Part shown: positions 3,964 through 24,000 of the stretch, piece after piece
How the letters are laid out: each line of letters opens with the position of its first letter
How positions within the stretch are numbered: the stretch's first letter is position 1
Origin: an uncultured Megasphaera sp.
Lineage (GTDB): Bacteria; Bacillota; Negativicutes; Veillonellales; Megasphaeraceae
Direction of reading: 5' to 3'
Assembly: GCF_958350005.1 (NCBI RefSeq)
Contig: NZ_CATWFF010000001.1
Span: 6,616-30,615 of the forward strand
Length of the DNA: 24,000 nucleotides
Notes under the pieces: model-generated
Database searches by the model: none
Seen by the model: only the letters and a program-made list of their open reading frames with translations
What the model was told of the DNA's origin: nothing
Position numbers and translations under genes: made by a program

Positions 3964-5328
3964 ATGAGCATTATGGATTTTACAGGCAAACATATACTGG
4001 TTCTCGGCGCCGGTATCAGCGGCCAAGCTGCGTCGCTGGCCCTGGCCCGGCACGGCGGCAGCGTCGTACTGAATGATAAAAAAAATATTGATACGTCAGA
4101 AAAACCATGGCCGGAACTTGCCGCTGCCGGTGTGCAGCTGGTTTTCGGCAGTCAGGATATGGGTCTTCTCGAGGGCGTGGATATTGTCGTTCCATCACCG
4201 GTTATTTCTCCGGAAATGCCGCTGGTAGCAGAAGCCCTGCGCCGCGGACTTCCTGTCTGGAGCGAAGTCGAAGTGGCCTGCCGTCTTACGAATGCGGAAA
4301 TACTGGGCGTTACCGGTACGAACGGCAAGACGACGACAACGACTCTTCTCGGTGAAATGATGAAGGCTTCAGGCCGTCAGACCGTAGTAGGCGGCAATAT
4401 TGGCGCCGGATTATCGGAACTGGCAGAAGATTTGCCGGCCACGGCCGTCGTAGTAGCCGAGCTGTCGAGTTTTCAGCTGGAATTGACGCAGACCCTGAAG
4501 CCGAAGGCTGCGGTTATTCTGAACATTACGCCAGACCATCTGGACCGTCATCATACGATGGAAGCCTATGCTGCTGCGAAAGAACGGATTTTCCGCAATC
4601 AGGACAGTCACGATTTTGCGGCGCTCAATTATGATGACGCTCGGGTTCGGGCCATGGCAGACCGGATGAAAGGTCATATTCTGTGGTTTTCAACGGAAAG
4701 GGAAGTGCCGGAAGGGGCCTTCTATGACGGCACCTCTCTCATCCTTCGCCTCCACGGTGCCGATACGGTTATTTGCCGGGATAGGGACCTGCATCTGTTT
4801 GGCCGCCATAATATACAGAACTGCCTGGCTGCGTCTCTTCTGGCTCATGCTGCCGGCGTATCGCTGGATGTGATCCGCAAGGTACTGATGAGCTTTAAAG
4901 GCGTAGAACACAGACTGGAAAAAGTTCGCGTCATTCATGGCGTTACGTATTACAATGATTCCAAGGGAACCAATACGGACGCTTCCATTAAGGCGTTGGA
5001 AGCCTTTTCCGGTCATTTGATTCTCATTGCCGGCGGATACGATAAGATGACGCCTCTTGATGAGTTTATGGCGCTGGCAGCGAAAAAAGTCGATACCCTT
5101 ATCCTTATCGGCAATGCAGCTGACCGGTTTGAAGAAGCAGCTAAAAAGGCGGGCATTACAGATATTCGCCGTGCCGGGTACAGTATGGAACAGGCCATTA
5201 TGATGGCCCGCAAGATTGCCAAGGCACCGCAGGCCGTGCTGTTGTCGCCGGCTTGCTCCAGTTATGATATGTATGATAATTATGAACAGCGCGGACGGGT
5301 CTTTAAAGGCATTGTCAACGCAATATAG
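3964..5328 (+). CDS. murD: UDP-N-acetylmuramoylalanine--D-glutamate ligase (MurD)
   Basis: 454 aa. N-terminal Rossmann loop VLGAGISGQA and P-loop GVTGTNGKTTTT. GCAGGTG RBS lies 7 nt upstream. Confidence 0.95.
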   Translation: MSIMDFTGKHILVLGAGISGQAASLALARHGGSVVLNDKKNIDTSEKPWPELAAAGVQLVFGSQDMGLLEGVDIVVPSPVISPEMPLVAEALRRGLPVWSEVEVACRLTNAEILGVTGTNGKTTTTTLLGEMMKASGRQTVVGGNIGAGLSELAEDLPATAVVVAELSSFQLELTQTLKPKAAVILNITPDHLDRHHTMEAYAAAKERIFRNQDSHDFAALNYDDARVRAMADRMKGHILWFSTEREVPEGAFYDGTSLILRLHGADTVICRDRDLHLFGRHNIQNCLAASLLAHAAGVSLDVIRKVLMSFKGVEHRLEKVRVIHGVTYYNDSKGTNTDASIKALEAFSGHLILIAGGYDKMTPLDEFMALAAKKVDTLILIGNAADRFEEAAKKAGITDIRRAGYSMEQAIMMARKIAKAPQAVLLSPACSSYDMYDNYEQRGRVFKGIVNAI

Positions 5329-5360
5329 CAGTTAGTAATCTGGTAATGGGGGACGAAGAC

Positions 5361-6488
5361 ATGCGCCGAGTCATTATTTCCGGAGGCGGAACAGGCGGGC
5401 ATATTTATCCGGCAATTACGATTGCCCGGGCAATTGCCGACATCGAACCGACGGAGTTTTTATATGTAGGTTCTAAAATTGGATTGGAAAATACGCTGAT
5501 CCCTAAAGAAGGACTGCCGTTTGTTACCTTGGATGTACGGGGACTGGAACGAAAAATCTCCTTCCGCAACCTGGTTACGCTGGGGAAAACGGCGGCCAGC
5601 CTGATTCGGGCAGAAGGTATTATCCGTAAGTTTAAGCCGGACGTCGTCATCGGGACAGGCGGCTTTGTCTGCGGTCCCGTGCTGCTGGCAGCCAGCCTGA
5701 GCGGCGTGCCGGCACTGATTCAGGAACAGAACGTCATTCCTGGCGTGACCAATATGATTTTGAGCAAGTTTGTCACTCGTGTGGCCTTGGGATACAGGGA
5801 AGCGGCAGGCCGGTTCAAGCGGAAGAATATACTGGTATATACGGGAAATCCCGTCCGCAAGGATATTCTGACAGTTACAAAAGAAGAAGGGCGGCAGATG
5901 CTGGGGCTGGATCCTCATAAATTTACGCTCCTCGTAGCCGGCGGCAGCCGGGGGGCCAGAAGCATCAATTCTGCCATGATAGAAGTACATAAATATTTTG
6001 CCAATGCCAAGGATATACAAATCCTGCATGTAACAGGCGATCATGAATACGATCGGGTCGTCAAGCAGCTCGACGGCATTGACGGCAAGGGCCGCTACGG
6101 AGAAGGGAGCCGGATCATTCCCTATCTCCATCACATGCCGGCAGCCCTGGCCGCTGCTGATCTGGCCGTATACCGCGCCGGTGCCGTAGGACTGGCAGAG
6201 CTGACGGTCCGGGGCGTACCATCTATTCTGATTCCCTATCCCTATGCCGCAGAAGATCATCAGCGCTATAATGCCCAGGCTCTGGTCATGTGCGGCGCCG
6301 CCAAAATGATTCTGGACAAAATGCTGACCGGACGGGATTTGCTGGAAGAAATTCTGCACCTTAAAGAGGATCCGCAGGCCCTGGCAGCCATGGCCAAGGC
6401 CAGCAAGGCATTGGGGAAACCGCAGGCAGCCCATGATATTGCCACCCTGGCGTTATCCATTGCCCGCTGTCGGCACAGCTCTCACTAA
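5361..6488 (+). CDS. murG: Undecaprenyldiphospho-muramoylpentapeptide beta-N-acetylglucosaminyltransferase (MurG)
   Basis: N-terminal G-loop ISGGGTGGHIYPA with GT28 family layout. I chose the ATG at 5361, which has GGGGGA 7 nt upstream. The ORF-track ATG at 5346 has no SD and adds MGDED. Confidence 0.9.
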   Translation: MRRVIISGGGTGGHIYPAITIARAIADIEPTEFLYVGSKIGLENTLIPKEGLPFVTLDVRGLERKISFRNLVTLGKTAASLIRAEGIIRKFKPDVVIGTGGFVCGPVLLAASLSGVPALIQEQNVIPGVTNMILSKFVTRVALGYREAAGRFKRKNILVYTGNPVRKDILTVTKEEGRQMLGLDPHKFTLLVAGGSRGARSINSAMIEVHKYFANAKDIQILHVTGDHEYDRVVKQLDGIDGKGRYGEGSRIIPYLHHMPAALAAADLAVYRAGAVGLAELTVRGVPSILIPYPYAAEDHQRYNAQALVMCGAAKMILDKMLTGRDLLEEILHLKEDPQALAAMAKASKALGKPQAAHDIATLALSIARCRHSSH

Positions 6489-6511
6489 ATAAAGGATGTG
6501 TAAGAAAGACC

Positions 6512-7891
6512 ATGGTTAATCTTGACGATATACGAAAAATACATTTTGTTGGCATTGCCGGCGCAGGTATGCGGGCTATTGCCAATGTATTCATAGAAAA
6601 AGGATATGACGTATCCGGTTCTGATATCAGAGAATCGGATATTACCAGACGGCTGGCAGAAAAAGGGGCCCGCATCTGTATTGGACAGAAAGGGGAAAAC
6701 CTGGAAGATGCGCAGGTCGTCGTCGTTTCTTCGGCTATCCGCAGCGACAATGCCGAAGTCGTTGAAGCGCGGCGCCGGCAGATTCCGGTCATCCATCGTT
6801 CTGACGCCCTTGTCCATATCATGACCTGGGGTAAGGGAATCTCCGTTGCCGGTGCTCACGGCAAGACGACGACGTCGTCCATGCTGGGCCAGGTATTTGA
6901 AGAAAATCATATGGACCCGACTATTGTCATTGGCGGCGAAGTCGATTACCTGCACAGTAATTCCATCCTTGGCAAGGGCAAATATGTCATTGCCGAAGCC
7001 GATGAAAGTGACGGAACCTTTCTCAAGCAGAAACCGTACATTGCTGTAGTGACGAATATTGACGCCGACCATATGGATCATTACGGCTCACTGGCCAATG
7101 TGGTAGAAGCGTTTAAAGAATTTATTCAGAAGCTGGACCCGGAAACGGGACTGGCTGTGCTGTGCGTGGAAAATGAACGCATCCGTGCGCTGGCACCGCA
7201 CGTACAGCGCCGATATGTATCGTACGGCATTGATCAGCCTGCAGATTATCAGGCTTCCAATCTTCACTATGTGGCAGGACGGCTGCACTTTGACGTCTCG
7301 TTCCAGGGTACACACCTGGGAGAAGTGGTGCTCCATGTTCCAGGTCGGCATAATGTGCTCAATGCCCTGGCAACGATTGCCGTCGCCCTTCACTGCGGCA
7401 TTCCCTTTGCCGGAATAGCAGAAGCGCTGTCTCATTTTCACGGAGCAAAACGGCGGTTCCAGACGAAGGGAATCGTCAAAGACGTGTGGGTCGTTGACGA
7501 TTATGCTCATCATCCGACAGAAATCAATGCCACCCTGACGGCAGCCCGGGACATGGGGACGCACCGCGTCGTATGCGTGTTCCAGCCGCACCGGTATACG
7601 CGGACGAAACTCCTGCTCAACCAATATGGAGCGGCCTTTGCCAAGGCAGATGAGCTCATCGTCACCGACGTGTACAGTGCCGGTGAAGATCCCATTCCCG
7701 GCATATCAGGCAAGCTGATTGCCGATAAGGTGCGGGAAACGACAGGGCAGGATGTGCGGTATATTCCCCATGCTGATGACGTTGTTGCGTACCTGGAGGA
7801 AACATCCCGGCCTTTCGACCTGATTATCACCATGGGAGCCGGCGATATTTACAAAGTAGGCGAACGTTATTTAGAAGCAGTCAGAAAATAG
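6512..7891 (+). CDS. murC: UDP-N-acetylmuramate--L-alanine ligase (MurC)
   Basis: 459 aa. N-terminal IHFVGIAGAGMRAIA and P-loop VAGAHGKTTTSSM, with a Mur-ligase C-terminal domain. Confidence 0.95.
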   Translation: MVNLDDIRKIHFVGIAGAGMRAIANVFIEKGYDVSGSDIRESDITRRLAEKGARICIGQKGENLEDAQVVVVSSAIRSDNAEVVEARRRQIPVIHRSDALVHIMTWGKGISVAGAHGKTTTSSMLGQVFEENHMDPTIVIGGEVDYLHSNSILGKGKYVIAEADESDGTFLKQKPYIAVVTNIDADHMDHYGSLANVVEAFKEFIQKLDPETGLAVLCVENERIRALAPHVQRRYVSYGIDQPADYQASNLHYVAGRLHFDVSFQGTHLGEVVLHVPGRHNVLNALATIAVALHCGIPFAGIAEALSHFHGAKRRFQTKGIVKDVWVVDDYAHHPTEINATLTAARDMGTHRVVCVFQPHRYTRTKLLLNQYGAAFAKADELIVTDVYSAGEDPIPGISGKLIADKVRETTGQDVRYIPHADDVVAYLEETSRPFDLIITMGAGDIYKVGERYLEAVRK

Positions 7892-7907
7892 GAGCATACA
7901 CAGGACT

Positions 7908-8846
7908 ATGGAAATGATGAAAGAGAAAAAAATCGCCGTCATCGTAGGCGGCCCTTCAACGGAAGCAGCTGTTTCGCGCAATACTGGGACCTCGGTGGCC
8001 AAAGCGCTGAATGAAAAGGGATATCATACGGAAACGATCGAGCTGGTGCCGCATGAACTGGCCAGAGAACTGGAAGAACGCCATATTGACGTCGTCTTCA
8101 ATGCCCTGCACGGCCGGTACGGTGAAGACGGCGTGCTACAGGGCATGTGTGAAATGATGGGCATTCCCTATACAGGTCCCGGCGTCATGGCCAGTGCCGT
8201 AGGCATGAGCAAAGTCATGAGCAAGTGCGCCTTTCAGGGGGCCGGTATTCCGACAGCTCCCTTTGCGTATTACTTTGCTTCCCAGGGAACGGATGCTATT
8301 TTGAAAGATCTGCACAGCCGCTTCTCCCTGCCTGTAGTCATCAAGTCTTCCGGACAGGGTTCCAGCATTGGCACGGTCATTGTTACAGAAGAATCGCAGC
8401 TGAAAGGCGCCCTCGATGAAGCCTTCAAATATGGCGATTCCATTATTGCCGAAGCCTTTCTGACTGGCGATGAATTTACGGTTGCTGTCATGGATGACCT
8501 GGCCTTTCCGGTTATTCAGATCGTGTCGTCTACAGGAAAGTACGATTATTATTCCAAATACACGCCAGGCGTGTCTACCCATCTTTGCCCGGCACCGGTG
8601 TCAGAAGAACTGACCAAAGAGATGCAGGACCTGGCGCTGCGCGTGTTCCACCTGTGCCACTGCAGCGGCGTAGCCCGCGTCGATTTGATGACAGACGGAA
8701 AGGGCAATCCTTTTGTTCTGGAAATCAATACGGTCCCCGGCATGACAGCGACCAGTCTGGTGCCGGATGCAGCCAAGGCCATGGGCCTTTCCTTTGCCGA
8801 TTTATGTGAAAAGATTCTGCTGGAAGCTTCTGTAGGTAAATTCTGA
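7908..8846 (+). CDS. ddl: D-alanine--D-alanine ligase (Ddl)
   Basis: 312 aa, ATP-grasp. KIAVIVGGPSTEAAVS N-terminus and LEINTVPGMTATSLVP near the C-terminus. The omega-loop segment YYSKYTPG keeps the Tyr that aligns with E. coli DdlB Tyr216, as expected for D-Ala-D-Ala rather than D-Ala-D-Lac ligases. Confidence 0.93.
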   Translation: MEMMKEKKIAVIVGGPSTEAAVSRNTGTSVAKALNEKGYHTETIELVPHELARELEERHIDVVFNALHGRYGEDGVLQGMCEMMGIPYTGPGVMASAVGMSKVMSKCAFQGAGIPTAPFAYYFASQGTDAILKDLHSRFSLPVVIKSSGQGSSIGTVIVTEESQLKGALDEAFKYGDSIIAEAFLTGDEFTVAVMDDLAFPVIQIVSSTGKYDYYSKYTPGVSTHLCPAPVSEELTKEMQDLALRVFHLCHCSGVARVDLMTDGKGNPFVLEINTVPGMTATSLVPDAAKAMGLSFADLCEKILLEASVGKF

Positions 8847-8847
8847 T

Positions 8848-9741
8848 ATGCCAAAGGACAGATACACGTTGCCCGAACTCCATCGAACCAGCGATGTGTT
8901 TATTCCTCCCCAGATTGAACACGATCCGCTGGATGACCTGACGCCGGGAAACGAAAAGAAAGAACAGCCGGAACCTGGGGAAAAGCGCCGCCGTCTGCGC
9001 CGAAAGAAAAAGGACAGCCTGCGCCGCCGGCGCCGGCGGAAAAAGCGCAGCCGCCTGGCAATCGCCGGAGGTGTTCTGGGAGTTTTGGTTCTGTGGCTGC
9101 TGCTGCGGGTGGCACCGATTTCGTTCGGCACTCTCCTTATTGAAGGCAATGAAGCGCTGACGGCAGAAGACGTACGTCGGGCTGCCGGCGTGCCAGGGTA
9201 TGTCAATGTCATTCAGCTGTCGCCGGACGATATGCAGGAACGGATGCAGAAGGATCTGCGCATCAGCGCTGTCACAGTAAAGCGGGAATTTCCGGCGGCC
9301 ATACGCATTACGCTGACGGAACGAAAAGCAGCTGCTGTTGTCCGGACGCTGTATGGCTTTGCCTATGTCGATGCCAAAGGCACCGTCATGGATATACAGC
9401 CGCAGATTCAGGGCATTTCCGTTCCCATCATTACAGGTACCAAAATGGATGCGCTCCTGCTGGGTGATACTATCAGCGACGGTCCCATTGCACGGGGACT
9501 GGCGTATCTGCAGGAACTGCCGCCGGATATTCTGAAGACCATTGCCGAAGTCAATGTGGGAAATGAAACCAACCTCATTGCCTATACGAGTGATTCCCTG
9601 CCTATTTATCTGGGGACAGGCGACCACCCGGCAGAACGGGCAAAGCTTACGGAAGAGCTGCTGCAGGAAGTGCAGCAGCGGCATATGATGGTTCAGTATA
9701 TTGATACGGATATACGGGCCCCCCTGGTCAAAAGCAAATAG
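8848..9741 (+). CDS. ftsQ: Cell division protein FtsQ/DivIB (POTRA domain) with a polybasic N-terminal tail
   Basis: 297 aa. Cytoplasmic tail, a single TM helix (IAGGVLGVLVLWLLL), then a POTRA-like segment (IEGNEALTAEDVRRAAG...ITLTERKAAAVV). Lies between ddl and ftsZ. Confidence 0.8.
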   Translation: MPKDRYTLPELHRTSDVFIPPQIEHDPLDDLTPGNEKKEQPEPGEKRRRLRRKKKDSLRRRRRRKKRSRLAIAGGVLGVLVLWLLLRVAPISFGTLLIEGNEALTAEDVRRAAGVPGYVNVIQLSPDDMQERMQKDLRISAVTVKREFPAAIRITLTERKAAAVVRTLYGFAYVDAKGTVMDIQPQIQGISVPIITGTKMDALLLGDTISDGPIARGLAYLQELPPDILKTIAEVNVGNETNLIAYTSDSLPIYLGTGDHPAERAKLTEELLQEVQQRHMMVQYIDTDIRAPLVKSK

Positions 9742-9850
9742 GATGGGTTTACATAAAAAAAATATGGATAATTTTTTCCAGATAGTGTAAAATAATAGAG
9801 AATCCTATGTATACAGCAGTATTCACGATTTTGAAGGAGGAAAAAGTAAC

Positions 9851-10882
9851 ATGGCAGAGTTTGCAAATATAAAAGTAATTGGCGTTGGCGGCGGCGGAAA
9901 TAATGCTGTCAACCGTATGATAGAAAGCGGACTTCAGGGTGTACAGTTTATTTCGGTCAACACAGAAGACCAGGTACTGGAAGTATCGAAGGCAGATGTT
10001 AAAATTCAGATCGGTGAAAAACTGACCCGTGGTCTTGGTGCCGGTGCCAATCCTCAGGTTGGCGAACAGGCAGCACTGGAAAGCAAGGAAGAAATTATCA
10101 AAGCCCTTCAGGGTGCCGATATGGTTTTCGTCACAGCCGGCATGGGCGGCGGTACCGGCACAGGCGCTGCGCCGATCGTTGCCGAATGTGCCAAGGAAAT
10201 GGGCGCCCTTACGGTTGCTGTCGTTACCAAACCCTTTGCATTTGAAGGCAAACGCCGGAAAGAACAGGCAGAAAAAGGCGCTGCCTACTTAAAAGAAAAA
10301 GTAGATACGATCATTACGATTCCTAATGACAAACTGCTTCAGATTATTGACAAGAAAACGCCGCTGAAAGATGCGTTCCTCGTTGCCGATGACGTTCTCC
10401 GTCAGGGCGTACAGGGGATTTCCGACCTGATTACGACGACGGGCCTGATTAACCTGGACTTTGCTGACGTGAAGACCATCATGTCCGACCAGGGCGAAGC
10501 CATCATGGGCATCGGCGTAGGTTCCGGCGAAAACCGTGCTGTTGAAGCTGTTGACGGAGCTATTCACAGCTCCCTGCTGGAAACGGGTATTGACGGCGCC
10601 CAGAGCATTCTGCTCAACGTAACAGGCGGTCCTGACATCAGCCTGTATGAAATCAATGAAGCGGCAGAAAAAGTTGCGGAAGCAGTGGATCCGGACGCAA
10701 ACATCATCTTTGGTTCTGTCATCGATCCGGATATGGAAGACTCCATCCGTATTACTGTCGTTGCTACGGGATTTGGCAAAGAACCGTCGTCTATCCCTGC
10801 ATTTGGCCAGAACGGCAGCGTAAAGACCGGCAGTGACACCCGGGAAGCAGGCGGCGTAGAAATTCCTACGTGGATGAGATAA
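9851..10882 (+). CDS. ftsZ: Cell division GTPase FtsZ
   Basis: 343 aa. [15 protein letters not shown] and tubulin signature [11 protein letters not shown]-terminal anchor-binding peptide EIPTWMR. Strong GAAGGAGG RBS. Confidence 0.97.
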
Positions 10883-17270: not shown

Positions 17271-17298
17271 TTGAGATTCGTAAAAATTATAGTAGAAT
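17271..17298 (+). promoter_or_regulatory. Candidate sigma-70 promoter of the PTA-hydrogenase operon
   Basis: -35 TTGAGA (17271-17276), 16-nt spacer, -10 TAGAAT (17293-17298), in an AT-rich 230-nt intergenic region about 78 nt upstream of the ATG. Confidence 0.4.
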
Positions 17299-17375: not shown

Positions 17376-19817
17376 ATGTCTCGTTTTATGAATAACCTGA
17401 AGCGGCGCGTAGCCAAAAAAGTAAAAAGAATTGTGTTGCCTGAATCGCACAGCCGCCGTGTACTGCAGGCCGTAGAAATGGTGCAGACCGAAGGGTTTGC
17501 CCGTCCTATTCTGGTCGGCAGGCCTCACGAACTGATTGAGCGGGCCGGAGAATACCAGATCGATCTGGACGGCATAGAAATTATCGATCCGGAAACGTAT
17601 CCCATGCTGGACAAATTCAGCAAGTATTATGCAGAAAAATCCAGCAAAGGCAGTATGTCGGAAGAAGAAGCACGGACCATATTGCTGCAGAATCCTATTC
17701 GCTTCGGTGCCTGTCTGGTAGCCTTTGATATTGCTGACGGCATGGTAGCCGGCATTACTGATCCGTCATCAGAAGTCCTTCATGCATCGCTCCAGCTCAT
17801 TGGCGTACACCCTGGCGTAACCACTGTCAGCAGTACGATGATCATGATTACCGATAAGCCCCAGTTTGGCGATGACGGTATTTTTGTTATCGGCGACCCT
17901 GACGTCATTATCGAGCCGACGGCGCAGCAGCTGGCCGATATTGCCGCCAACTGCGTGGAACGGGCCCGCCGGACCGTACAGATTCTGGACCCGCGGGTAG
18001 CGCTCCTTTCGTATTCCACCATGGGCAGCGGCGAAGGTGAGGAAGTAGATCGCGTACGGGAAGCAGTCCAGCTCCTGCGGGACCGGAACGTAGATTTTGC
18101 CTTTGACGGTGAACTGCAGCTGGATACGGCCATTGTTCCCCGTATTGCCCAGAATAAAGCTCCCGATTCTGCCGTAGCCGGCCAGGCCAATATTCTGATT
18201 TTCCCAAACCTGTCGGCTGCCAATGTGAGCTACAAAATGCTGAAATACTTATACGACGCCCAGGCTGTCGGTCCTATGCTGCAGGGGCTGAAAAAGCCGG
18301 TTATGGACTTGCCCCGCGGCTGTTCGCCTGAAGATATTGTCGATGTCATGGCTGTCTGCTGCAGTGATGCCATCTATATGGAAGAAGAACGGAAGCGGGA
18401 TATTGAGTTTACGAGCCGCTTTGAAAAACTCGATCGCCGCGTAGCTATTGCCAAGCATAATGTGTCTATTCAGTTCGACGAAAGCAAGTGTAAGAACTGC
18501 ACCCTGTGCCGCCGCCGCTGTGCTGATGTCATGACCATTACGGGGTATTATTCGCTGGAAAGTACGGGAGACAAGCCTATTTGCGTCAACTGCGGCCAAT
18601 GTGCCCTGACCTGTGTGTTTGATGCTACTAATGGCGTATCGCAAAGTGAGTTCATCCAGCGGGATATAGACGATCCTGACAAGATTGTTATTTTCCAGAC
18701 CGCACCGGCCGTGCGCGTGGCGTTGGGCGAAGAATTCGGCATGCCTTACGGCTCCATGGTGCAGGGGAAACTGATCGCTGCTCTGCGGGCTTTAGGCGGA
18801 GACTATGTATTTGACACTAACTTTGGTGCCGATTTGACGATTATGGAAGAAGCGTCAGAGCTGCTGGACCGACTGGAAAATAAAAAGAAACTGCTGCCCC
18901 AGTTTACGAGCTGCTGCCCGTCATGGGTGGAATTTACGGAAATTTTCTTCCCCGAACTGATTCCCCATTTGTCGACGGCAAAAAGTCCGATCAGCATGCT
19001 CAGTTCCATGATTAAGACCTATTTTGCCGATCGAAAACACCTGGACCCGAAGAAGATCGTTACTGTCTGCGTTACGCCGTGTACGGCAAAGAAAGCGGAA
19101 ATTGAACGGCCTGAACATAATGCAGCCGGCAGATACTGGGATCAGCCGGAAATCCGCGATACTGACTACTGCATTACGACGCGGGAACTGGCCAACTGGA
19201 TGCGTAGCCGAAACATTGACTTTAACAGCCTGGAAGACTCGGCGTATGATTCCGTATTCGGCGAATCGTCAGGTGCCGGCATGATTTTCGGCGCCAGCGG
19301 CGGCGTGATGGAAGCAGCGCTGCGGACGCTGGTATATCTGGATACGGGCCGGGTTGCCGATAAGAACTTCCTGAACTTTACGCCTGTTCGTGGATTAGAC
19401 GGCGTCAAAGAAGCATCCATTACGTTCCGCAACGATATTATCCGCGTTGCCGCCATCAGCGGGCTAGGGAATGCCCGCAAGATTATGAACGTGCTGAAAG
19501 AAAATCACTCGTGGAAGAAGTATGCTTTCATTGAAGTCATGGCCTGCCCGGGCGGCTGCATTGGCGGCGGCGGCCAGCCGCGGACGAAGATGCCCCAGGA
19601 AATTACGGCCAAGAGAGCCCGTATCGAATCGGTATATGCCCTGGACCGGGAAAATATTATCCATTCGAGCTGGCAGAATCAGGAACTGAGCCAGCTCTAT
19701 GCCCGATTCCTGGATAAGCCCCTGAGTGAACGGGCTGAGCAGCTGCTGCACACGCAGTATGTCAATAAACACTATATGTTAGGGAGAGAAGACAATGTAG
19801 AACCGATCAGTTCGTGA
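17376..19817 (+). CDS. Fusion protein: N-terminal phosphate acetyl/butyryltransferase (PTA_PTB) domain plus C-terminal M2-type [FeFe]-hydrogenase, copy 1
   Basis: 813 aa from the ATG at 17376, which has AAGAAGGTG 6 nt upstream and gives the same MSRFMNNLKRR N-terminus as the paralog. PTA motifs: IVLPES, ADGMVAG, LLSYSTMGSG, DGELQLD, VAGQANILIFPNL, MDLPRGCSPEDIVD. Hydrogenase motifs: CKNCTLCRRRC and CVNCGQCALTC; FDTNFGADLTIMEE; FTSCCPSW; TPCTAKKAE; EVMACPGGCIGGGGQP; small-subunit-like tail LLHTQYVNKHY. Confidence 0.9.
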   Translation: MSRFMNNLKRRVAKKVKRIVLPESHSRRVLQAVEMVQTEGFARPILVGRPHELIERAGEYQIDLDGIEIIDPETYPMLDKFSKYYAEKSSKGSMSEEEARTILLQNPIRFGACLVAFDIADGMVAGITDPSSEVLHASLQLIGVHPGVTTVSSTMIMITDKPQFGDDGIFVIGDPDVIIEPTAQQLADIAANCVERARRTVQILDPRVALLSYSTMGSGEGEEVDRVREAVQLLRDRNVDFAFDGELQLDTAIVPRIAQNKAPDSAVAGQANILIFPNLSAANVSYKMLKYLYDAQAVGPMLQGLKKPVMDLPRGCSPEDIVDVMAVCCSDAIYMEEERKRDIEFTSRFEKLDRRVAIAKHNVSIQFDESKCKNCTLCRRRCADVMTITGYYSLESTGDKPICVNCGQCALTCVFDATNGVSQSEFIQRDIDDPDKIVIFQTAPAVRVALGEEFGMPYGSMVQGKLIAALRALGGDYVFDTNFGADLTIMEEASELLDRLENKKKLLPQFTSCCPSWVEFTEIFFPELIPHLSTAKSPISMLSSMIKTYFADRKHLDPKKIVTVCVTPCTAKKAEIERPEHNAAGRYWDQPEIRDTDYCITTRELANWMRSRNIDFNSLEDSAYDSVFGESSGAGMIFGASGGVMEAALRTLVYLDTGRVADKNFLNFTPVRGLDGVKEASITFRNDIIRVAAISGLGNARKIMNVLKENHSWKKYAFIEVMACPGGCIGGGGQPRTKMPQEITAKRARIESVYALDRENIIHSSWQNQELSQLYARFLDKPLSERAEQLLHTQYVNKHYMLGREDNVEPISS

Positions 19818-19832
19818 AAGAAGGAATGACGT

Positions 19833-22262
19833 ATGTCACGGTTCATGAATAATCTGAAGAGACGTGTAGGGAGACAGCAGAAAAAAATCGTCCTGCCTGA
19901 ATCGGACAGCCGCCGGATACTTCAGGCTGTCGATCAAATTGAAACGGAAGGGTTTGCCAAGACGGTCCTCGTCGGCAAACCGCGGCAGCTGATGGAACGG
20001 GCCTTTAAATACCAGATCGACCTGGACGGCGTAGAAATTATTGATCCGGAAACGTATCCCATGCTGGATACATTCAGCCGCTTTTATGCAGAGAAGCGCC
20101 GCAAGAAGGGCATGACTGTTTCCCAGGCCCGGGAAATTCTTTTAACAGATTACATTTGCTTTGGCGCGTGCCTCGTGGCTTTTGATATTGTTGACGGCAT
20201 GGTTGGCGGGGCGACGGTGCCGTCAGCCGATCTGATTCGGGCAGCCCTGCAGATTGTCGGCATGCATCCTGGTATTTCCACGGTCAGCAGTTCCTTCATT
20301 ATCATTACGGACAAGCCCCAGTTTGGCGACGACGGCATTTTCGTCCTTGGCGATGCCAGCGTCGTCATTGAGCCGACGGCACAGCAGCTGGCCGATATTA
20401 CGGTAAACTGTGTACACCGGGCGCGGCGTACGGTGCAGACCCTGGACCCGAAGGCGGCGCTCCTGTCGTATTCGACCCTGGGAAGCGGATCAGGAGAACA
20501 GGTGGACCGTGTGCGGGAAGCGGCCAGGCTGCTGCGGGACCGGAATGTGGATTTTGATTTCGACGGCGAGCTCCAGTCCGATGCGGCCATTATTCCCCGC
20601 GTTGCCCGCTACAAAGCGCCGGGTTCAACCGTTGCCGGTCAGGCTAATGTTCTGGTATTTCCCAATCTGGAGTCCGGCAATATTTGCTATAAGATTTTGC
20701 AGCATCTCTATGGCGCCATCGCCTTGGGGCCTCTTCTGGAAGGGACGGCCAAACCTATTATGGATCTGTCCCGGGGATGCTCTGCTGAAGATATTGTCGA
20801 TATTGTGGCTATTTGCTGCAGCGATGCCATTTATCAGGATGCCGAACGGCGGCGGGATCAGGATTTTACCAGCCATTTTGCCATGCTCGATCATCGCGTG
20901 GCTGTGGATGAACATAATATATCCATTCGCTTTGACGGAACAAAGTGCCAGAACTGCTCCCTTTGCCGCCGCCGCTGTGCAGAGGTTATGACGGTGACGG
21001 GATATTATTCCCTGGCCAGCACAGGAGACACGCCGATCTGCGTGCACTGCGGACAGTGTTCGCTGGTCTGCCCCTTTGGCGCAACCAAGAGCATTTCTCA
21101 GGAAACCTATATCGAGCAGGCTATGGCAGATCCCGATAAAATCGTCGTATTCCAGACCGGTGCCGCTGTACGGGTGGCCCTGGGAGAAGAGTTCGGCCTG
21201 CCTTATGGAACGAATGTGGAAGATAAGCTTATTGGAGCCCTGCGGGAACTGGGCGGCGATTACGTCTTTGATACCAATGCAGCCTCTGATATTGCCGTCA
21301 TGGAAGAAGTGGCCGAACTGCGGCAGCGCCTGAAGGAACACCGGGAATTGACGCCCATGTTTACCAGTGTCTGCCCGTCGTGGATTGAATTTATGGAAAT
21401 CTTTTTCCCTGAACTGCTTCCTCATTTGTCAACAGCTAAAAGCCCTACGAGCATGATGGGCGCTGTCATTAAAACGTACCTTGCCAAAACCCTTCATGTC
21501 GATCCGGAACGGATCGTTACGGTCAGCATTACGCCGTGTACGGCAAAAAAAGCGGAAATCTCCCGGCCGGAACGCAATGCTGCCGGCCAGTTCTGGCAGA
21601 AACCGGATATGCGGGATACCGATTACTGCCTGACCGTGCGGGAACTGGCCAACTGGATGCGAAGAAAAGACATGAACCTGACCGATATGCCGGCTTCACA
21701 GTATGATGCGCCGTTTCACAGGGCATCTGGCGGGGCTATGCTGGTCGGCGCCAGCGGCGGCATGATGGAAGCGATGATGCGGACCTTTGCCTATGAAGAG
21801 ACAGGCAAAGTCGATGAGGAATTTCTGCATTTCACGCCTGTCCGCGGACTGACTGGCGTGAAAGAAGCATCTGTTTCCATTGGAGATGCCCTCTTCCGCG
21901 TCGCCGTCGTCAGCGGCCTGGGAAATGCCAGGGCCTTTATTAATCGCCTGAAAGAAAAACATTCGTGGAAAAAATATACGTGTATTGAAATCATGGCCTG
22001 TCCTGGCGGCTGTATTGGCGGCGGCGGCCAGCCCAGAACGGAAATGGCCGATGAAATACCGGCCAAGCGGGCCCGCATGGAAGCCATCTATCAGGCTGAT
22101 GCCAATAATCCGCGTCATGGCAGCTGGCAGGATGAAGCAGTCCGGGATGTCTATGCCGGCTTTTTAGGCGAGCCCCTGGGACCTGCGGCGCATGCGCTGC
22201 TGCATACGCAGTTTATTAACAAGCACTATCTGCTGGGAAAAGAAGACCGCGTTTCGCCCTGA
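19833..22262 (+). CDS. Fusion protein: N-terminal PTA_PTB domain plus C-terminal M2-type [FeFe]-hydrogenase-like domain, copy 2 (L1 motif TSVCP)
   Basis: 809 aa, 15 nt downstream of copy 1, with an AAGAAGGAA RBS. Collinear with copy 1, roughly two-thirds identical by eye. PTA motif MDLSRGCSAEDIVD is intact. Hydrogenase motifs: CQNCSLCRRRC, CVHCGQCSLVCP, FTSVCPSW (Val replaces the first Cys), TPCTAKKAE, EIMACPGGCIGGGGQP. Confidence 0.9.
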   Translation: MSRFMNNLKRRVGRQQKKIVLPESDSRRILQAVDQIETEGFAKTVLVGKPRQLMERAFKYQIDLDGVEIIDPETYPMLDTFSRFYAEKRRKKGMTVSQAREILLTDYICFGACLVAFDIVDGMVGGATVPSADLIRAALQIVGMHPGISTVSSSFIIITDKPQFGDDGIFVLGDASVVIEPTAQQLADITVNCVHRARRTVQTLDPKAALLSYSTLGSGSGEQVDRVREAARLLRDRNVDFDFDGELQSDAAIIPRVARYKAPGSTVAGQANVLVFPNLESGNICYKILQHLYGAIALGPLLEGTAKPIMDLSRGCSAEDIVDIVAICCSDAIYQDAERRRDQDFTSHFAMLDHRVAVDEHNISIRFDGTKCQNCSLCRRRCAEVMTVTGYYSLASTGDTPICVHCGQCSLVCPFGATKSISQETYIEQAMADPDKIVVFQTGAAVRVALGEEFGLPYGTNVEDKLIGALRELGGDYVFDTNAASDIAVMEEVAELRQRLKEHRELTPMFTSVCPSWIEFMEIFFPELLPHLSTAKSPTSMMGAVIKTYLAKTLHVDPERIVTVSITPCTAKKAEISRPERNAAGQFWQKPDMRDTDYCLTVRELANWMRRKDMNLTDMPASQYDAPFHRASGGAMLVGASGGMMEAMMRTFAYEETGKVDEEFLHFTPVRGLTGVKEASVSIGDALFRVAVVSGLGNARAFINRLKEKHSWKKYTCIEIMACPGGCIGGGGQPRTEMADEIPAKRARMEAIYQADANNPRHGSWQDEAVRDVYAGFLGEPLGPAAHALLHTQFINKHYLLGKEDRVSP

Positions 22263-22275
22263 TAGGCCGGACTAT

Positions 22276-22305
22276 TGACACCGGCGCGCATGGCCACGTA
22301 TAATA
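22276..22305 (+). promoter_or_regulatory. Near-consensus sigma-70 promoter driving the structured RNA
   Basis: -35 TTGACA (22276-22281), 18-nt spacer, -10 TATAAT (22300-22305). It starts 14 nt after the copy-2 stop codon. Confidence 0.6.
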
Positions 22306-22310
22306 AACAG

Positions 22311-22513
22311 GACATGTGCTGTGGTTGAAAGTCGATGCCAGTCGCAGGCAAAGCGATCCACGTAAGGGATGCAAAGTCATCCTGATCATAGTGCGGCCTA
22401 GACGTAAGACCTGCCGCAAAAAGCGAGAGAAGCAGTAGTGGGGGATGCAGACCATCTAGGAGCGAACCTTCCAGCAGGCGAGTGTGGGGGTAAAAACCAG
22501 GTCAGACATGTCC
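22311..22513 (+). ncRNA. Unassigned structured RNA of about 203 nt (family not determined)
   Basis: No plausible ORF. The predicted TSS is 6-7 nt after the -10. The 5' GGACAUGU pairs with the 3' ACAUGUCC (22506-22513), extended by CUG/CAG and UGGUU/AACCA. Internal hairpins lie at 22332-22358, 22368-22383, 22394-22418, 22444-22458 and 22460-22473. A terminator follows directly. Confidence 0.6.
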
Positions 22514-22518
22514 GTATA

Positions 22519-22567
22519 CAGAAACGCTTCGCAGCACAACAGGCTGTGAAGCGTTTCTGTGTGTTTC
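22519..22567 (+). terminator. Rho-independent terminator after the structured RNA
   Basis: 17-bp stem CAGAAACGCTTCGCAGC / GCTGTGAAGCGTTTCTG with one G-U pair, 7-nt loop, then TGTGTTTC. The U-tract is modest. On the opposite strand the hairpin is followed by TATAC, so + orientation is favoured. Confidence 0.65.
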
Positions 22568-22627
22568 AGGATATATTCATCATTTGGCAGCTGCGCTTGT
22601 TAAGGAGGCAAAATTAATCCTTTATTT

Positions 22628-22655: not shown

Positions 22656-22704
22656 AAAATGTAAAAGTGTTTATATTCAGCGGCCTGAAGGAGTGATGCT
22701 GCCG

Positions 22705-23157
22705 ATGCAGGCAGATGTAGCAGCAGTGGACAGAGAATTGCATAAAAATCCTTTTGATCGTTTTATGGATTTTCACATCGCCAAAGCCGATGAAGAAAGT
22801 ACGGTTCTCGTGTTTCAGAATAGAGGGTCATCGTGGGAAAATCCCAATGGCACACTCTATGGCGGCGTCTTGTATGCCATGGCAGACTCGGCGATGGAAA
22901 TTGCCTGTGCAGTCTGCGGCAATGCCGTCCTTACCCTGGATCTGGGAATGAACTATCTGCGCCCGGCTTTTTCCGATACGACGATTCGGGCAGAAGTAAA
23001 GATCATCCACAAAGGGCATACGACGATGGTGGCATTGTGCGATTTCTATGATAACCAGGAACGGTATCTGGCACACGGCAAGGGAACGTTTTTCGTAACC
23101 GGCCCGTTTGTATTTGGAGGTGAAGACACCGATGCTGACGGACAGACGGCGCAGTGA
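22705..23157 (+). CDS. PaaI/4HBT-type hotdog-fold acyl-CoA thioesterase, copy 1
   Basis: Hotdog thioesterase pattern NPNGTLYGGVLYAMADSAMEIA followed by a long central-helix and beta-sheet region. The start is uncertain. ATG 22705 lies 11 nt after AAGGAG. ATG 22696 and GTG 22693 sit too close to or inside the SD. Confidence 0.78.
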   Translation: MQADVAAVDRELHKNPFDRFMDFHIAKADEESTVLVFQNRGSSWENPNGTLYGGVLYAMADSAMEIACAVCGNAVLTLDLGMNYLRPAFSDTTIRAEVKIIHKGHTTMVALCDFYDNQERYLAHGKGTFFVTGPFVFGGEDTDADGQTAQ

Positions 23158-23575
23158 TGAAGCACTTCGCAGGCGGCTGCGAAATATTCAGCAGGGCATA
23201 TTCAGCCGAACGCCATATTTTCGCAATTTACCTTCAGAAATCGAAGACATTGATGAAGGGTGGGTACGTTTGGGCTTTGATATTTCTCCTCACCTGTGCA
23301 ACTATCGGGGTATAGCGTCAGGAGGGGTCCTGGCTGCGTTTTGCGATACCCTTATGGGGATGGCCAGCCGTACGCTGGGATATAAGGTGACGACGCTGGA
23401 AATTAATATGAACTATATCCGCCGCGTCCCGTCCGGCTGCCGCATTACCGGCATTGGTCAGGTCGTCCATCACGGCGGCAAGACCATTGTGGCAGAATGC
23501 GAATGCTTTGACGAAGATGGCGGTATTGTAGTGAAAGGCCGTTCTTCTTTTTACGTTTTGGGACGGTTGGACTAG
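23132..23575 (+). CDS. PaaI/4HBT-type hotdog-fold acyl-CoA thioesterase, copy 2
   Basis: NYRGIASGGVLAAFCDTLMGMA core. ATG 23132 has GGAGGTG 9 nt upstream, whereas the ORF-track start at 23108 is a TTG without an SD. Overlaps copy 1 by 26 nt. Confidence 0.78.
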   Translation: MLTDRRRSDEALRRRLRNIQQGIFSRTPYFRNLPSEIEDIDEGWVRLGFDISPHLCNYRGIASGGVLAAFCDTLMGMASRTLGYKVTTLEINMNYIRRVPSGCRITGIGQVVHHGGKTIVAECECFDEDGGIVVKGRSSFYVLGRLD

Positions 23576-23609: not shown

Positions 23610-24000
23610 ATGGATTTTGGATATAACGAAGAACAGCAGGAACTGATCAAGGTTGTTCGTGATTTAGTGGAAAAGGAAATCGTACCGTATGCAGCTGAAA
23701 TGGATGAAACAGGCAAACTGCATGAAGGATTGCTGGAAAAACTGGCAGCTCAGGGACTTCTCGGCGTGGCGATTCCGGAAGAATTCGGCGGTGCCGGACT
23801 GGATGCCGTAACGATTGCTGCTATTTATGAAGAACTCGGCAAGGGCTGTGCCGGCGTAGCAACGACAGTTGCTGCCAATGCGCTGGCTTCGTATCCTGTT
23901 ATTATTGCCGGCAATGACGACCAGAAAAAGCGGTATTTTGATATTATTAATGAAGATAATCTGGCTGCCTTTGCTCTGACCGAACCGGGAACCGGTTCTG
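23610..24000 (+). CDS. Acyl-CoA dehydrogenase (butyryl-CoA dehydrogenase-like), 5' partial, runs off the window
   Basis: My own translation gives MDFGYNEEQQELIKVVRDLVEKEIVPYAAEMDETGKL...GLLGVAIPEEFGGAGLD...AFALTEPGTGS. This matches the ACAD N-terminal domain pattern, including the conserved FALTEP segment. The ORF is open to the window end and is absent from the ORF track because it has no stop. Confidence 0.88.
   Translation, partial: MDFGYNEEQQELIKVVRDLVEKEIVPYAAEMDETGKLHEGLLEKLAAQGLLGVAIPEEFGGAGLDAVTIAAIYEELGKGCAGVATTVAANALASYPVIIAGNDDQKKRYFDIINEDNLAAFALTEPGTGS

Follow-up and report, generated by a model that had tools for sequence, protein, structure and literature searches.

A 24,000-nt stretch of DNA from an uncultured Megasphaera sp. 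(Negativicutes; contig NZ_CATWFF010000001.1, positions 6,616 to 30,615; referred to here as the window) contained two adjacent, co-oriented open reading frames (ORFs) on the forward strand, each predicted to encode a phosphotransacetylase (Pta) domain joined to an [FeFe]-hydrogenase. FUS1 (17376 to 19817) encodes 813 amino acids (aa) plus a stop codon and FUS2 (19833 to 22262) encodes 809 aa plus a stop codon; as an initial annotation of the sequence had reported, the two are 15 nt apart. Profile searches and residue mapping characterized FUS1 as a fusion with a canonical hydrogenase site and a degenerate Pta site, and FUS2 as a fusion with a canonical Pta site and a hydrogenase whose proton relay was lost. 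The active-site losses of the two proteins are complementary, falling in opposite halves. FUS1 was identical to database protein P0001, and FUS2 matched the P0015 cluster.

The FUS1 frame is open from 17331, and the ATG at 17376 is its likely start, as indicated by a Shine-Dalgarno sequence (AAGAAGGTG), by orthologues opening with MSRF, and by a gene call of 813 aa in an independent assembly (L048). A consensus scan placed a promoter-like site (TTGAGA-16-TAGAAT, 10/12, a consensus match only) at 17271 to 17298 on the forward strand, within the AT-rich 230-nt gap that follows an outer-membrane beta-barrel gene. The spacer between the two ORFs (19818 to 19832, forward strand) carries a Shine-Dalgarno sequence for FUS2 (AAGAAGGAA), and no terminator was found in it by sequence scan. 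Cotranscription of FUS1 and FUS2 is therefore likely, and the pair probably constitutes one operon.

Searches against Pfam and NCBIfam bore out the full-length PTA_PTB domain and M2-type [FeFe]-hydrogenase initially annotated in each ORF. PTA_PTB (PF01515) matched aa 4 to 328 of both proteins (E = 5e-102 for FUS1 and 1e-104 for FUS2), covering profile positions 2 to 318/319, followed by Fe_hyd_lg_C (PF02906) at aa 436 to 732 (E = 8e-90 for FUS1 and 1e-79 for FUS2) and Fe_hyd_SSU (PF02256) at aa 746 to 798. These three families had been expected, as had Fer4-type matches, which for FUS2 fell below the Pfam cutoffs. Scores for TIGR02512 ([FeFe] hydrogenase, group A) were 468 for FUS1 and 421.6 for FUS2 against a cutoff of 405.95. 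For the Pta equivalog TIGR00651 (cutoff 311.2), FUS2 scored above the cutoff (324.8) and FUS1 just under it (310.2). Mapping to the Pta of Methanosarcina thermophila (1QZT) delimited the PTA_PTB domain to aa 1 to 336 in FUS1 (17376 to 18383) and in FUS2 (19833 to 20840), both on the forward strand, as are the parts that follow. In FUS1, a lead sequence and F-cluster domain (aa 345 to 432; 18408 to 18671) aligned to the N terminus of the stand-alone hydrogenase HydA P0040, and the H-domain with its small-subunit-like tail, located by Pfam and residue mapping, occupied aa 433 to 813 (18672 to 19814). The F-cluster domain and H-domain of FUS2, located by residue mapping, together occupied aa 345 to 809 (20865 to 22259). 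The linker, initially put at about 25 aa, is shorter, about 10 aa, as the end of the Pta fold lies near aa 336 and HydA-like sequence (FTSRF...) runs from aa 345.

The N-terminal F-cluster domain of each copy consists of two CX2CX2CX3C [4Fe-4S] motifs (aa 372 to 382 and 403 to 413 in FUS1), without further N-terminal Fe-S domains. H-domain motifs were TSCCPSW, TPCTAKKAE, and MACPGGCIGGGGQP in FUS1 and TSVCPSW, FQTGAAVR, and MLVGASGG in FUS2, with motif L2 (TPCTAKKAE) the same in both fusions and in stand-alone Megasphaera HydA. All motifs quoted in the initial annotation were present in both translations. It listed TS(C/V)CPSW and MDLxRGC as variable motifs, but that their variable sites are Cys299 of the hydrogenase and Ser309 of Pta went unremarked. 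By profile, cluster ligands, and phylogeny, both H-domains are assigned to group A, M2-type [FeFe]-hydrogenases. Judged by residues, FUS2 departs from the group A/M2 pattern at the proton relay, and FUS1 departs from the PF01515 pattern at the catalytic positions.

Pta residues are numbered here by M. thermophila Pta (MtPta; 1QZT), and hydrogenase residues are numbered by CpI. In the Pta domain of FUS1, Arg87 and Arg133, which we take, from mutagenesis, to be CoA 3'-phosphate-binding residues of MtPta, are replaced by Ser89 and His136. Among the proposed catalytic residues of Pta, Ser309, Arg310, and Asp316 (PMC10194888), the first is replaced by Pro313 in FUS1 (codon CCC, 18312 to 18314), and the equivalents of the other two are retained. 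FUS2 keeps the equivalents of Arg87, Arg133, Ser309 (Ser313; codon 20769 to 20771), Arg310, and Asp316. Functional residues of MtPta were identical at 11/21 positions in FUS1, including 8 of the 11 that contact acetyl-CoA, and at 16/21 in FUS2, a count equal to that in bona fide stand-alone Megasphaera Ptas. Ser309 was found in 108/110 and Arg310 in 110/110 of the nearest stand-alone PTA proteins (n = 112). A CC motif at the Pta C-terminal helix was rejected as a fusion-specific feature, as it occurs in all Megasphaera and Caecibacter Ptas.

The hydrogenase half presented the opposite pattern. All proton-pathway and H-cluster residues of FUS1 are canonical, with Cys299 present as Cys513 (18912 to 18914). 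In FUS2, the corresponding residue is Val513 (codon GTC, 21369 to 21371, two changes from TGC), and the second-sphere changes Ala230Gly, Pro231Ala, and Phe417Val accompany it. The proton pathway Cys299-Glu279-Ser319-Glu282-Arg286 is complete in FUS1 (5/5), whereas Cys299 is missing in FUS2 (4/5). The four H-cluster cysteines and Lys358 (motifs L1, L2, and L3) are present in both fusions; FUS2 thereby retains Cys300, Cys355, Cys499, Cys503, and Lys358, along with all F-cluster ligands. Cys299, Glu279, Glu282, Ser319, Ala230, Pro231, Lys358, and Met497 showed no variation among the 99 nearest stand-alone hydrogenases, where the positions changed in the FUS2 H-domain were 98 to 100% conserved. 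When the matching cysteine of CaHydA (Cys298) was subjected to saturation mutagenesis, turnover stayed efficient only with Asp (PMC3485046). The two copies, each initially annotated as a full-length PTA_PTB domain with a complete hydrogenase, are by this mapping not two complete bifunctional enzymes, given Ser309Pro in the Pta half of FUS1 and Cys299Val in the hydrogenase half of FUS2. Met353Thr was rejected as a sign of degeneration, being a lineage trait common to the active stand-alone MeHydA type.

Among 5.8 billion protein clusters searched, about 20 clusters at 90% identity combined PF01515, PF02906, and PF02256. All named clusters were from Megasphaera (M. elsdenii, M. massiliensis, M. 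cerevisiae, M. sueciensis, and M. intestinihominis); the largest, from M. elsdenii, had 1,563 members, and the family was abundant in gut metagenomes. Exhaustive scanning of 1.84 billion representatives at 50% identity with HMMER returned a single full-length representative spanning both domains (P0010). No PTA domain was found in the other long matches checked by Pfam, which carried NuoF, NuoG, or flavodoxin domains instead. A genome scan, which used FUS1-derived patterns and possibly missed divergent FUS2 genes, recovered fusions almost entirely from Megasphaera-named records, apart from an unclassified bin labeled "bacterium" and two short contigs from another labeled "Lachnospiraceae bacterium." By these searches, the fusion architecture is confined to the genus Megasphaera. 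RefSeq labels for the fusions are generic ("phosphate acetyltransferase" or "[FeFe] hydrogenase, group A"), and a full-text literature search, mainly of open-access texts, found no description of a PTA-hydrogenase fusion. The sequences are already public but generically annotated, and the fusion itself is undescribed in the literature searched, in line with the initial annotation, which had known of no characterized hydrogenase with a PTA domain.

The probability that sequencing or annotation errors joined separate pta and hydA genes is practically negligible. A few database entries from draft assemblies are split, truncated, or frameshifted (P0021, P0030, and P0341), but P0030 has an obvious frameshifted tail, and the split forms are accordingly regarded as artifacts themselves. 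A continuous fusion ORF was present in isolates of four species (M. cerevisiae DSM 20462, M. elsdenii MSK.21.52, M. massiliensis NP3, and M. intestinihominis) and in many metagenome-assembled genomes (MAGs). The same tandem layout recurred in L048, which was 99.95% identical (5 single nucleotide polymorphisms in 10,168 nt). Together with the roughly 20 clusters, these observations uphold the earlier judgment that a frameshift or assembly artifact was unlikely.

Purifying selection acts on each domain of each paralogue. Values of dN/dS were 0.02 to 0.15 in every comparison, including those of H-domains lacking Cys299, which indicates that the proteins are functional. For unsaturated pairs within the FUS2 clade, dN/dS was 0.02 in the PTA domain and about 0.055 in the H-domain, and dN of the FUS2 H-domain was about 3 times that of its PTA domain. 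All eight F-cluster and four H-cluster cysteines were retained across the family alignment. Other residues varied among lineages. FUS2 orthologues carried Cys299Ser, Glu279Thr, Arg286Cys, and Met353Val, with Lys358Gln in one; the M. massiliensis clade carried Cys299Ala or Cys299Ser and Ser at both Ala230 and Pro231, with cluster ligands kept; P0017 carried Glu279Leu and Arg286Gly; and several lineages had Asn, Gly, or Glu at Pta Asp316. Selection apparently does not favor the highest catalytic rate in both halves of the fusions. One genus thus holds canonical fusions, fusions without the proton relay, and fusions without Pta catalytic residues, which constitutes a natural experiment, and the window genome, with a reciprocal pair in one probable operon, adds to an unusually informative series from catalytic to degenerate forms. 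P0017, P0018, and P0019, from the M. sueciensis group, were longer (865 to 873 aa), with an insertion of about 50 residues in the PTA domain after the Arg87 region (alignment A1, columns 101 to 154), Asp316Glu, and a different genomic context.

In neighbor-joining trees, the H-domains of all fusions formed one clade, sister to stand-alone Megasphaera M2 HydA and about 62% identical to stand-alone HydA P0040. One H-domain clade indicates a single fusion event within the Megasphaera lineage. FUS1 and FUS2 shared 65% aa identity with saturated dS, and each had its own orthologues and its own synteny at separate loci in other Megasphaera. A recent tandem duplication was rejected on these grounds; the tandem pair of the initial annotation consists of old paralogues and is not a simple duplication. 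Two sets of sequences appeared to be mosaics. The L010 gene at 5959 to 8439 (CAVKEA010000007) had its H-domain in the FUS1 clade and its PTA domain in the FUS2 clade, which suggests recombination between paralogues or a chimeric MAG assembly. P0022, P0025, and P0028 are 473-aa hydrogenase-only proteins from ENA metagenomes with identical N-terminal thirds of the stand-alone HydA type and middle and C-terminal parts that alternate between the stand-alone and fusion types, a pattern that points to gene conversion between hydA and fusion genes or to assembly chimeras.

FUS2-type loci L015, L016, and L046 share the 3' synteny of the window, consisting of a raiA RNA directly 3' of the fusion gene, two genes of the 4HBT thioesterase fold, an acyl-CoA dehydrogenase gene, pheS, and pheT. 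A CoA-transferase gene and a LytTR response regulator gene lie 5' of the FUS2-type gene in L016. FUS2-type genes sit in an acyl-CoA gene setting, with CoA-transferase on the 5' side and thioesterases and acyl-CoA dehydrogenase on the 3' side. The nearest FUS1 relatives (81% identity) were located elsewhere, between pfk and an ABC transporter gene. The main fusion gene of M. elsdenii, M. massiliensis, and M. cerevisiae follows glmS, at the end of a conserved cdaA-ybbR-glmM-glmS block, and precedes a divergent stand-alone pta-like gene. Genes for pyruvate:ferredoxin oxidoreductase (PFOR), ferredoxin, acetate kinase (ackA), and the HydEFG maturases were looked for near the fusions, in the window and at the loci of relatives, and none was found. 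Megasphaera also has canonical stand-alone Pta and M2 HydA, so the fusion was rejected as the sole Pta of the genus, and this coexistence would leave the fusions free for specialized roles.

The pta-like gene 3' of the fusion was located at L004 8804 to 9829, L009 8559 to 9599, L011 8494 to 9588, L014 8545 to 9582, and L049 9486 to 10496. It was more degenerate than the fused PTA domain (7 to 9 of 21 functional residues), carrying Asp316Thr, Gln244Glu, Tyr282Cys, and a variable Lys257, and the contigs mostly end soon after it. Its product may pair with the fusion as a heterodimer.

[FeFe]-hydrogenases are classed by their accessory domains into M1 to M5 and subclasses, and we know of no described architecture that includes a fused non-redox metabolic enzyme such as Pta. 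The fusions resemble M. elsdenii HydA (MeHydA), the prototypical M2 group A enzyme, in the two-F-cluster N-terminal domain, the TPCTAKKAE L2 motif, and the small-subunit-like tail, but they carry a 336-aa Pta domain at the N terminus, and proton-relay residues found without exception throughout the stand-alone HydA clade are missing from FUS2 and several relatives. The PTA_PTB part matched class I Pta of M. thermophila (1QZT, 2AF3, and 2AF4) over its full length (E = 1e-73 for FUS2). Unlike class I Pta, it is covalently joined to a hydrogenase and, in FUS1, has Ser309Pro, Arg87Ser, and Arg133His. Class II Pta (E. coli, about 714 aa) has a Pta catalytic domain with a large N-terminal non-redox regulatory extension that modulates Pta; the fusions likewise carry a large extra domain on Pta, here a C-terminal metalloenzyme rather than an N-terminal extension, and the NCBIfam profile PRK05632 matched them only through its C-terminal Pta part (positions 384 to 700).

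The hybrid malic enzymes MaeB, DME, and TME also have a PTA-family domain fused to an unrelated enzyme, C-terminal to a malic enzyme in MaeB as opposed to N-terminal to a hydrogenase here. In MaeB, this domain has lost its catalytic residues and serves in acetyl-CoA sensing and as the core of oligomerization (PMC7902834), which makes it, by analogy, a plausible model for the PTA module of FUS1. The PTA domains of the fusions were nearer to true Ptas (1e-57 to 1e-76 against Pta structures in PDB) than to MaeB (1e-41 to 1e-47). The NCBIfam profile PRK12861 matched only their PTA part, the malic-enzyme domain being absent by Pfam, and the FUS2 domain, unlike that of MaeB, looks catalytic from its residues. 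In the putative sensory hydrogenase groups C and D, Cys299 is absent and mostly replaced by Ala, and the genes often lie in an operon with a group A hydrogenase (PMC8163306 and PMC10407848). FUS2 resembles these HydS proteins (TmHydS, group C/M2f; TamHydS, group D/M2e) in the loss of Cys299 with H-cluster ligands kept, and in adjoining the gene for a prototypical group A hydrogenase, FUS1. Unlike HydS, FUS2 has no PAS domain and no C-terminal Cx2Cx4Cx16C cluster domain (it ends ...LLHTQFINKHYLLGKEDRVSP, with no Cys beyond the small-subunit-like tail), and the domain appended to it is an enzyme. FUS2 is not a HydS member, because it keeps four pathway residues (Glu279, Glu282, Arg286, and Ser319) and is nested in group A beside MeHydA; the analogy is functional only.

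The reciprocal losses of catalytic residues suggest a built-in link between hydrogen and acetate metabolism. The initial annotation had offered two alternatives, metabolic coupling and control of the hydrogenase by acyl-CoA; for FUS2, the residues that changed hint at a third, in which a sensor-like H-domain would be attached to a catalytic Pta. We tentatively favor a division of labor, which we hold to be a realistic possibility, somewhat short of probable: FUS1 would be the catalytic hydrogenase, and FUS2 would be a catalytic Pta with a sensor-like H-domain, such that partitioning of acetyl-CoA is coupled to H2 and redox status. FUS1 would evolve H2 in a ferredoxin-dependent manner, its PTA module serving only in dimerization or ligand binding. 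FUS2 would convert acetyl-CoA to acetyl-phosphate, and its H-domain would bind an H-cluster, turn over slowly, and report H2 or the ferredoxin redox state, as has been proposed for HydS. Assemblies of FUS1 with FUS2, or of either with itself, may form through the PTA domains, because Ptas are dimers and the two proteins would be coexpressed. Acetyl-CoA sent through Pta and acetate kinase, which yields ATP and acetate, rather than into chain elongation would leave reducing equivalents to be released as H2; through the fusion, the acetate branch would thus be tied to the capacity for venting electrons in that form. The physiological rationale would be a stoichiometric tie of this branch to H2 release in lactate-fermenting chain elongators, for which preprints connect Pta-Ack flux with H2 production and the chain length of the products (10.1101/2025.05.02.651941 and 10.64898/2026.09.09.750506).

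Several observations weigh against this division of labor. Both sites are canonical in most members of the family (M. elsdenii L009, M. cerevisiae L004, and P0009), so the ancestral protein was probably plainly bifunctional, and some members fit no clean division because both domains are altered (Cys299Ala with Asp316Gly in M. massiliensis). FUS1-type and FUS2-type genes occurred on different contigs (L003 and L016) of one MAG, from which it follows that physical pairing is not required across the family and that the tandem layout is so far specific to the window species. In FUS2, the first relay residue alone is missing, and an alternative proton route is possible. A catalytic role of Pta Asp316 is a proposal only (PMC10194888), and loss of Pta activity through Ser309Pro is assumed from the role of the residue. 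No HydS-type output domain (PAS) was found in the fusions by Pfam. An AlphaFold monomer model of FUS1, built from a 20-sequence family alignment, had a mean pLDDT of 67 and a pTM of 0.50, with pLDDT below 50 for the linker and F-domain (aa 342 to 415), and was uninformative on domain packing and the dimer interface.

The canonical members would fit plain bifunctional enzymes, the coupling option of the initial annotation, in which both proteins catalyze both reactions and fusion provides only coexpression and 1:1 stoichiometry, or colocalization near PFOR, for the two steps that use up its products. Strong purifying selection on both domains accords with this explanation, as does the established biochemistry of PFOR, whose coproducts are acetyl-CoA and reduced ferredoxin. 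Neither protein of the window has both sites intact, however: FUS1 has Pro at catalytic Ser309 and lacks both CoA-phosphate arginines, and FUS2 has Val at Cys299, whereas Asp alone substitutes functionally in CaHydA (PMC3485046). Channeling would bring no benefit, because the Pta and hydrogenase reactions share no intermediate, and a conserved neighborhood with PFOR, ferredoxin, or acetate kinase was not found at the loci examined. Bifunctionality of both proteins is considered rather unlikely. A similarly doubtful alternative, modeled on MaeB and corresponding to the second option of the initial annotation, holds that both PTA domains are noncatalytic modules for sensing acyl-CoA, CoA, or acetyl-phosphate and for oligomerization, through which the hydrogenase is allosterically controlled. 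The PTA domain of the hybrid malic enzyme, without catalytic residues, transmits inhibition by acetyl-CoA (PMC7902834). In the fusions, the FUS1 domain has lost Ser309 yet retains 8/11 acetyl-CoA contacts, and Asp316 is Asn, Gly, or Glu in many members. This alternative sits poorly with the PTA domain of FUS2, which is as canonical as those of stand-alone Ptas (16/21 residues and a score above the TIGR00651 cutoff) and would have little to regulate, because the hydrogenase is the degenerate half of FUS2. FUS1, moreover, lacks both CoA 3'-phosphate arginines, and PRK12861 scores were 153 to 155 against a cutoff of 1178. In MaeB, the R535 contact is essential for acetyl-CoA sensing (PMC7902834), its equivalence to the FUS1 arginines being by analogy between unaligned residues.

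The substitutions might also reflect relaxed constraint in redundant paralogues undergoing slow decay, with stand-alone Pta and HydA doing the real work, an explanation that appears quite improbable. Canonical stand-alone Pta and M2 HydA are indeed present in the genus, "essential" residues of both domains vary as a lineage-specific mosaic, the FUS2 H-domain has about threefold the dN of its PTA domain, and FUS2 is 71% identical between two genomes whose neighboring acyl-CoA dehydrogenases are 94.6% identical. Decay is difficult to reconcile with dN/dS of 0.02 to 0.15 throughout, even in H-domains without Cys299, with about 30 full-length copies free of frameshifts and stops, with retention of all eight F-cluster and four H-cluster cysteines, and with the abundance of the family in gut metagenomes, where clusters reach 1,563 members.

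A more specific proposal, extending the division of labor, is that FUS2-type fusions and the Cys299-less fusions of M. massiliensis are Ptas gated by their own H-cluster; we regard it as unlikely but worth stating. The hydrogenase domain, no longer capable of fast proton transfer, would act as a covalently attached sensor of H2 or ferredoxin redox state and would allosterically set the flux of acetyl-CoA between the ATP-yielding acetate branch and chain elongation. If true, direct regulation of a metabolic enzyme by an [FeFe] H-cluster would be seen here for the first time, and a "sensory" hydrogenase would have arisen independently and recently within group A, with ancestral catalytic forms surviving in sister species. 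The family occurs in M. elsdenii, a model organism of hydrogenase biochemistry. Megasphaera is important for lactate use in the rumen and gut, for beer spoilage, and for the production of medium-chain carboxylates; how flux divides in these settings between acetate plus H2 and chain elongation governs the product spectrum and H2 release. Close homologues make it testable how a catalytic hydrogenase becomes sensory and whether H2 status can be wired posttranslationally to acetyl-CoA partitioning.

Downstream of FUS2, a perfect sigma-70 consensus (TTGACA-18-TATAAT; 22275 to 22304, forward strand) precedes a full-length raiA motif RNA (Rfam RF03072, 184 bits; 22309 to 22514, forward strand), and a hairpin plus T-run follows the RNA at about 22520 to 22568 (forward strand). 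The RNA separates FUS2 from the thioesterase genes. The two 4HBT-fold thioesterase genes conserved 3' of FUS2-type genes are at 22693 to 23157 and 23108 to 23575 on the forward strand. As listed, these ORFs overlap by 50 nt, and the second, with a TTG start, probably begins later; the corresponding L048 gene calls are 150 and 147 aa. An acyl-CoA dehydrogenase gene, also conserved 3' of FUS2-type genes and identified by tblastn against the L016 gene, with Pfam matches in the L016 and L046 orthologues, begins at 23610 on the forward strand and is cut by the window end at 24000 after its N-terminal 130 aa. It was 94.6% identical to L016 9721 to 10860, whereas the thioesterases were 74 to 78% and FUS2 71% identical between the window and L016, so FUS2 evolves much faster than its acyl-CoA dehydrogenase neighbor. 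HydEFG maturase genes were absent from the 24,000-nt window. The glmS ribozymes found 5' of glmS at loci of relatives (L004 3712 to 3863, L009 3740 to 3889, and L014 3811 to 3964) were ordinary.

The 5' part of the window carries dcw-type genes (murE-murF-mraY-murD-murG-murC-ddl-ftsQ-ftsZ) followed by nrdR. Within this block, no ftsW-like ORF was found between murD and murG (3964 to 6488) and no ftsA-like ORF between ftsQ and ftsZ (8848 to 10882). Lipopolysaccharide heptose genes come next (hldE, an epimerase gene, gmhB, and two GT9 heptosyltransferase genes) and are followed by the outer-membrane beta-barrel gene. The FtsZ encoded in the window is short, at 343 aa.

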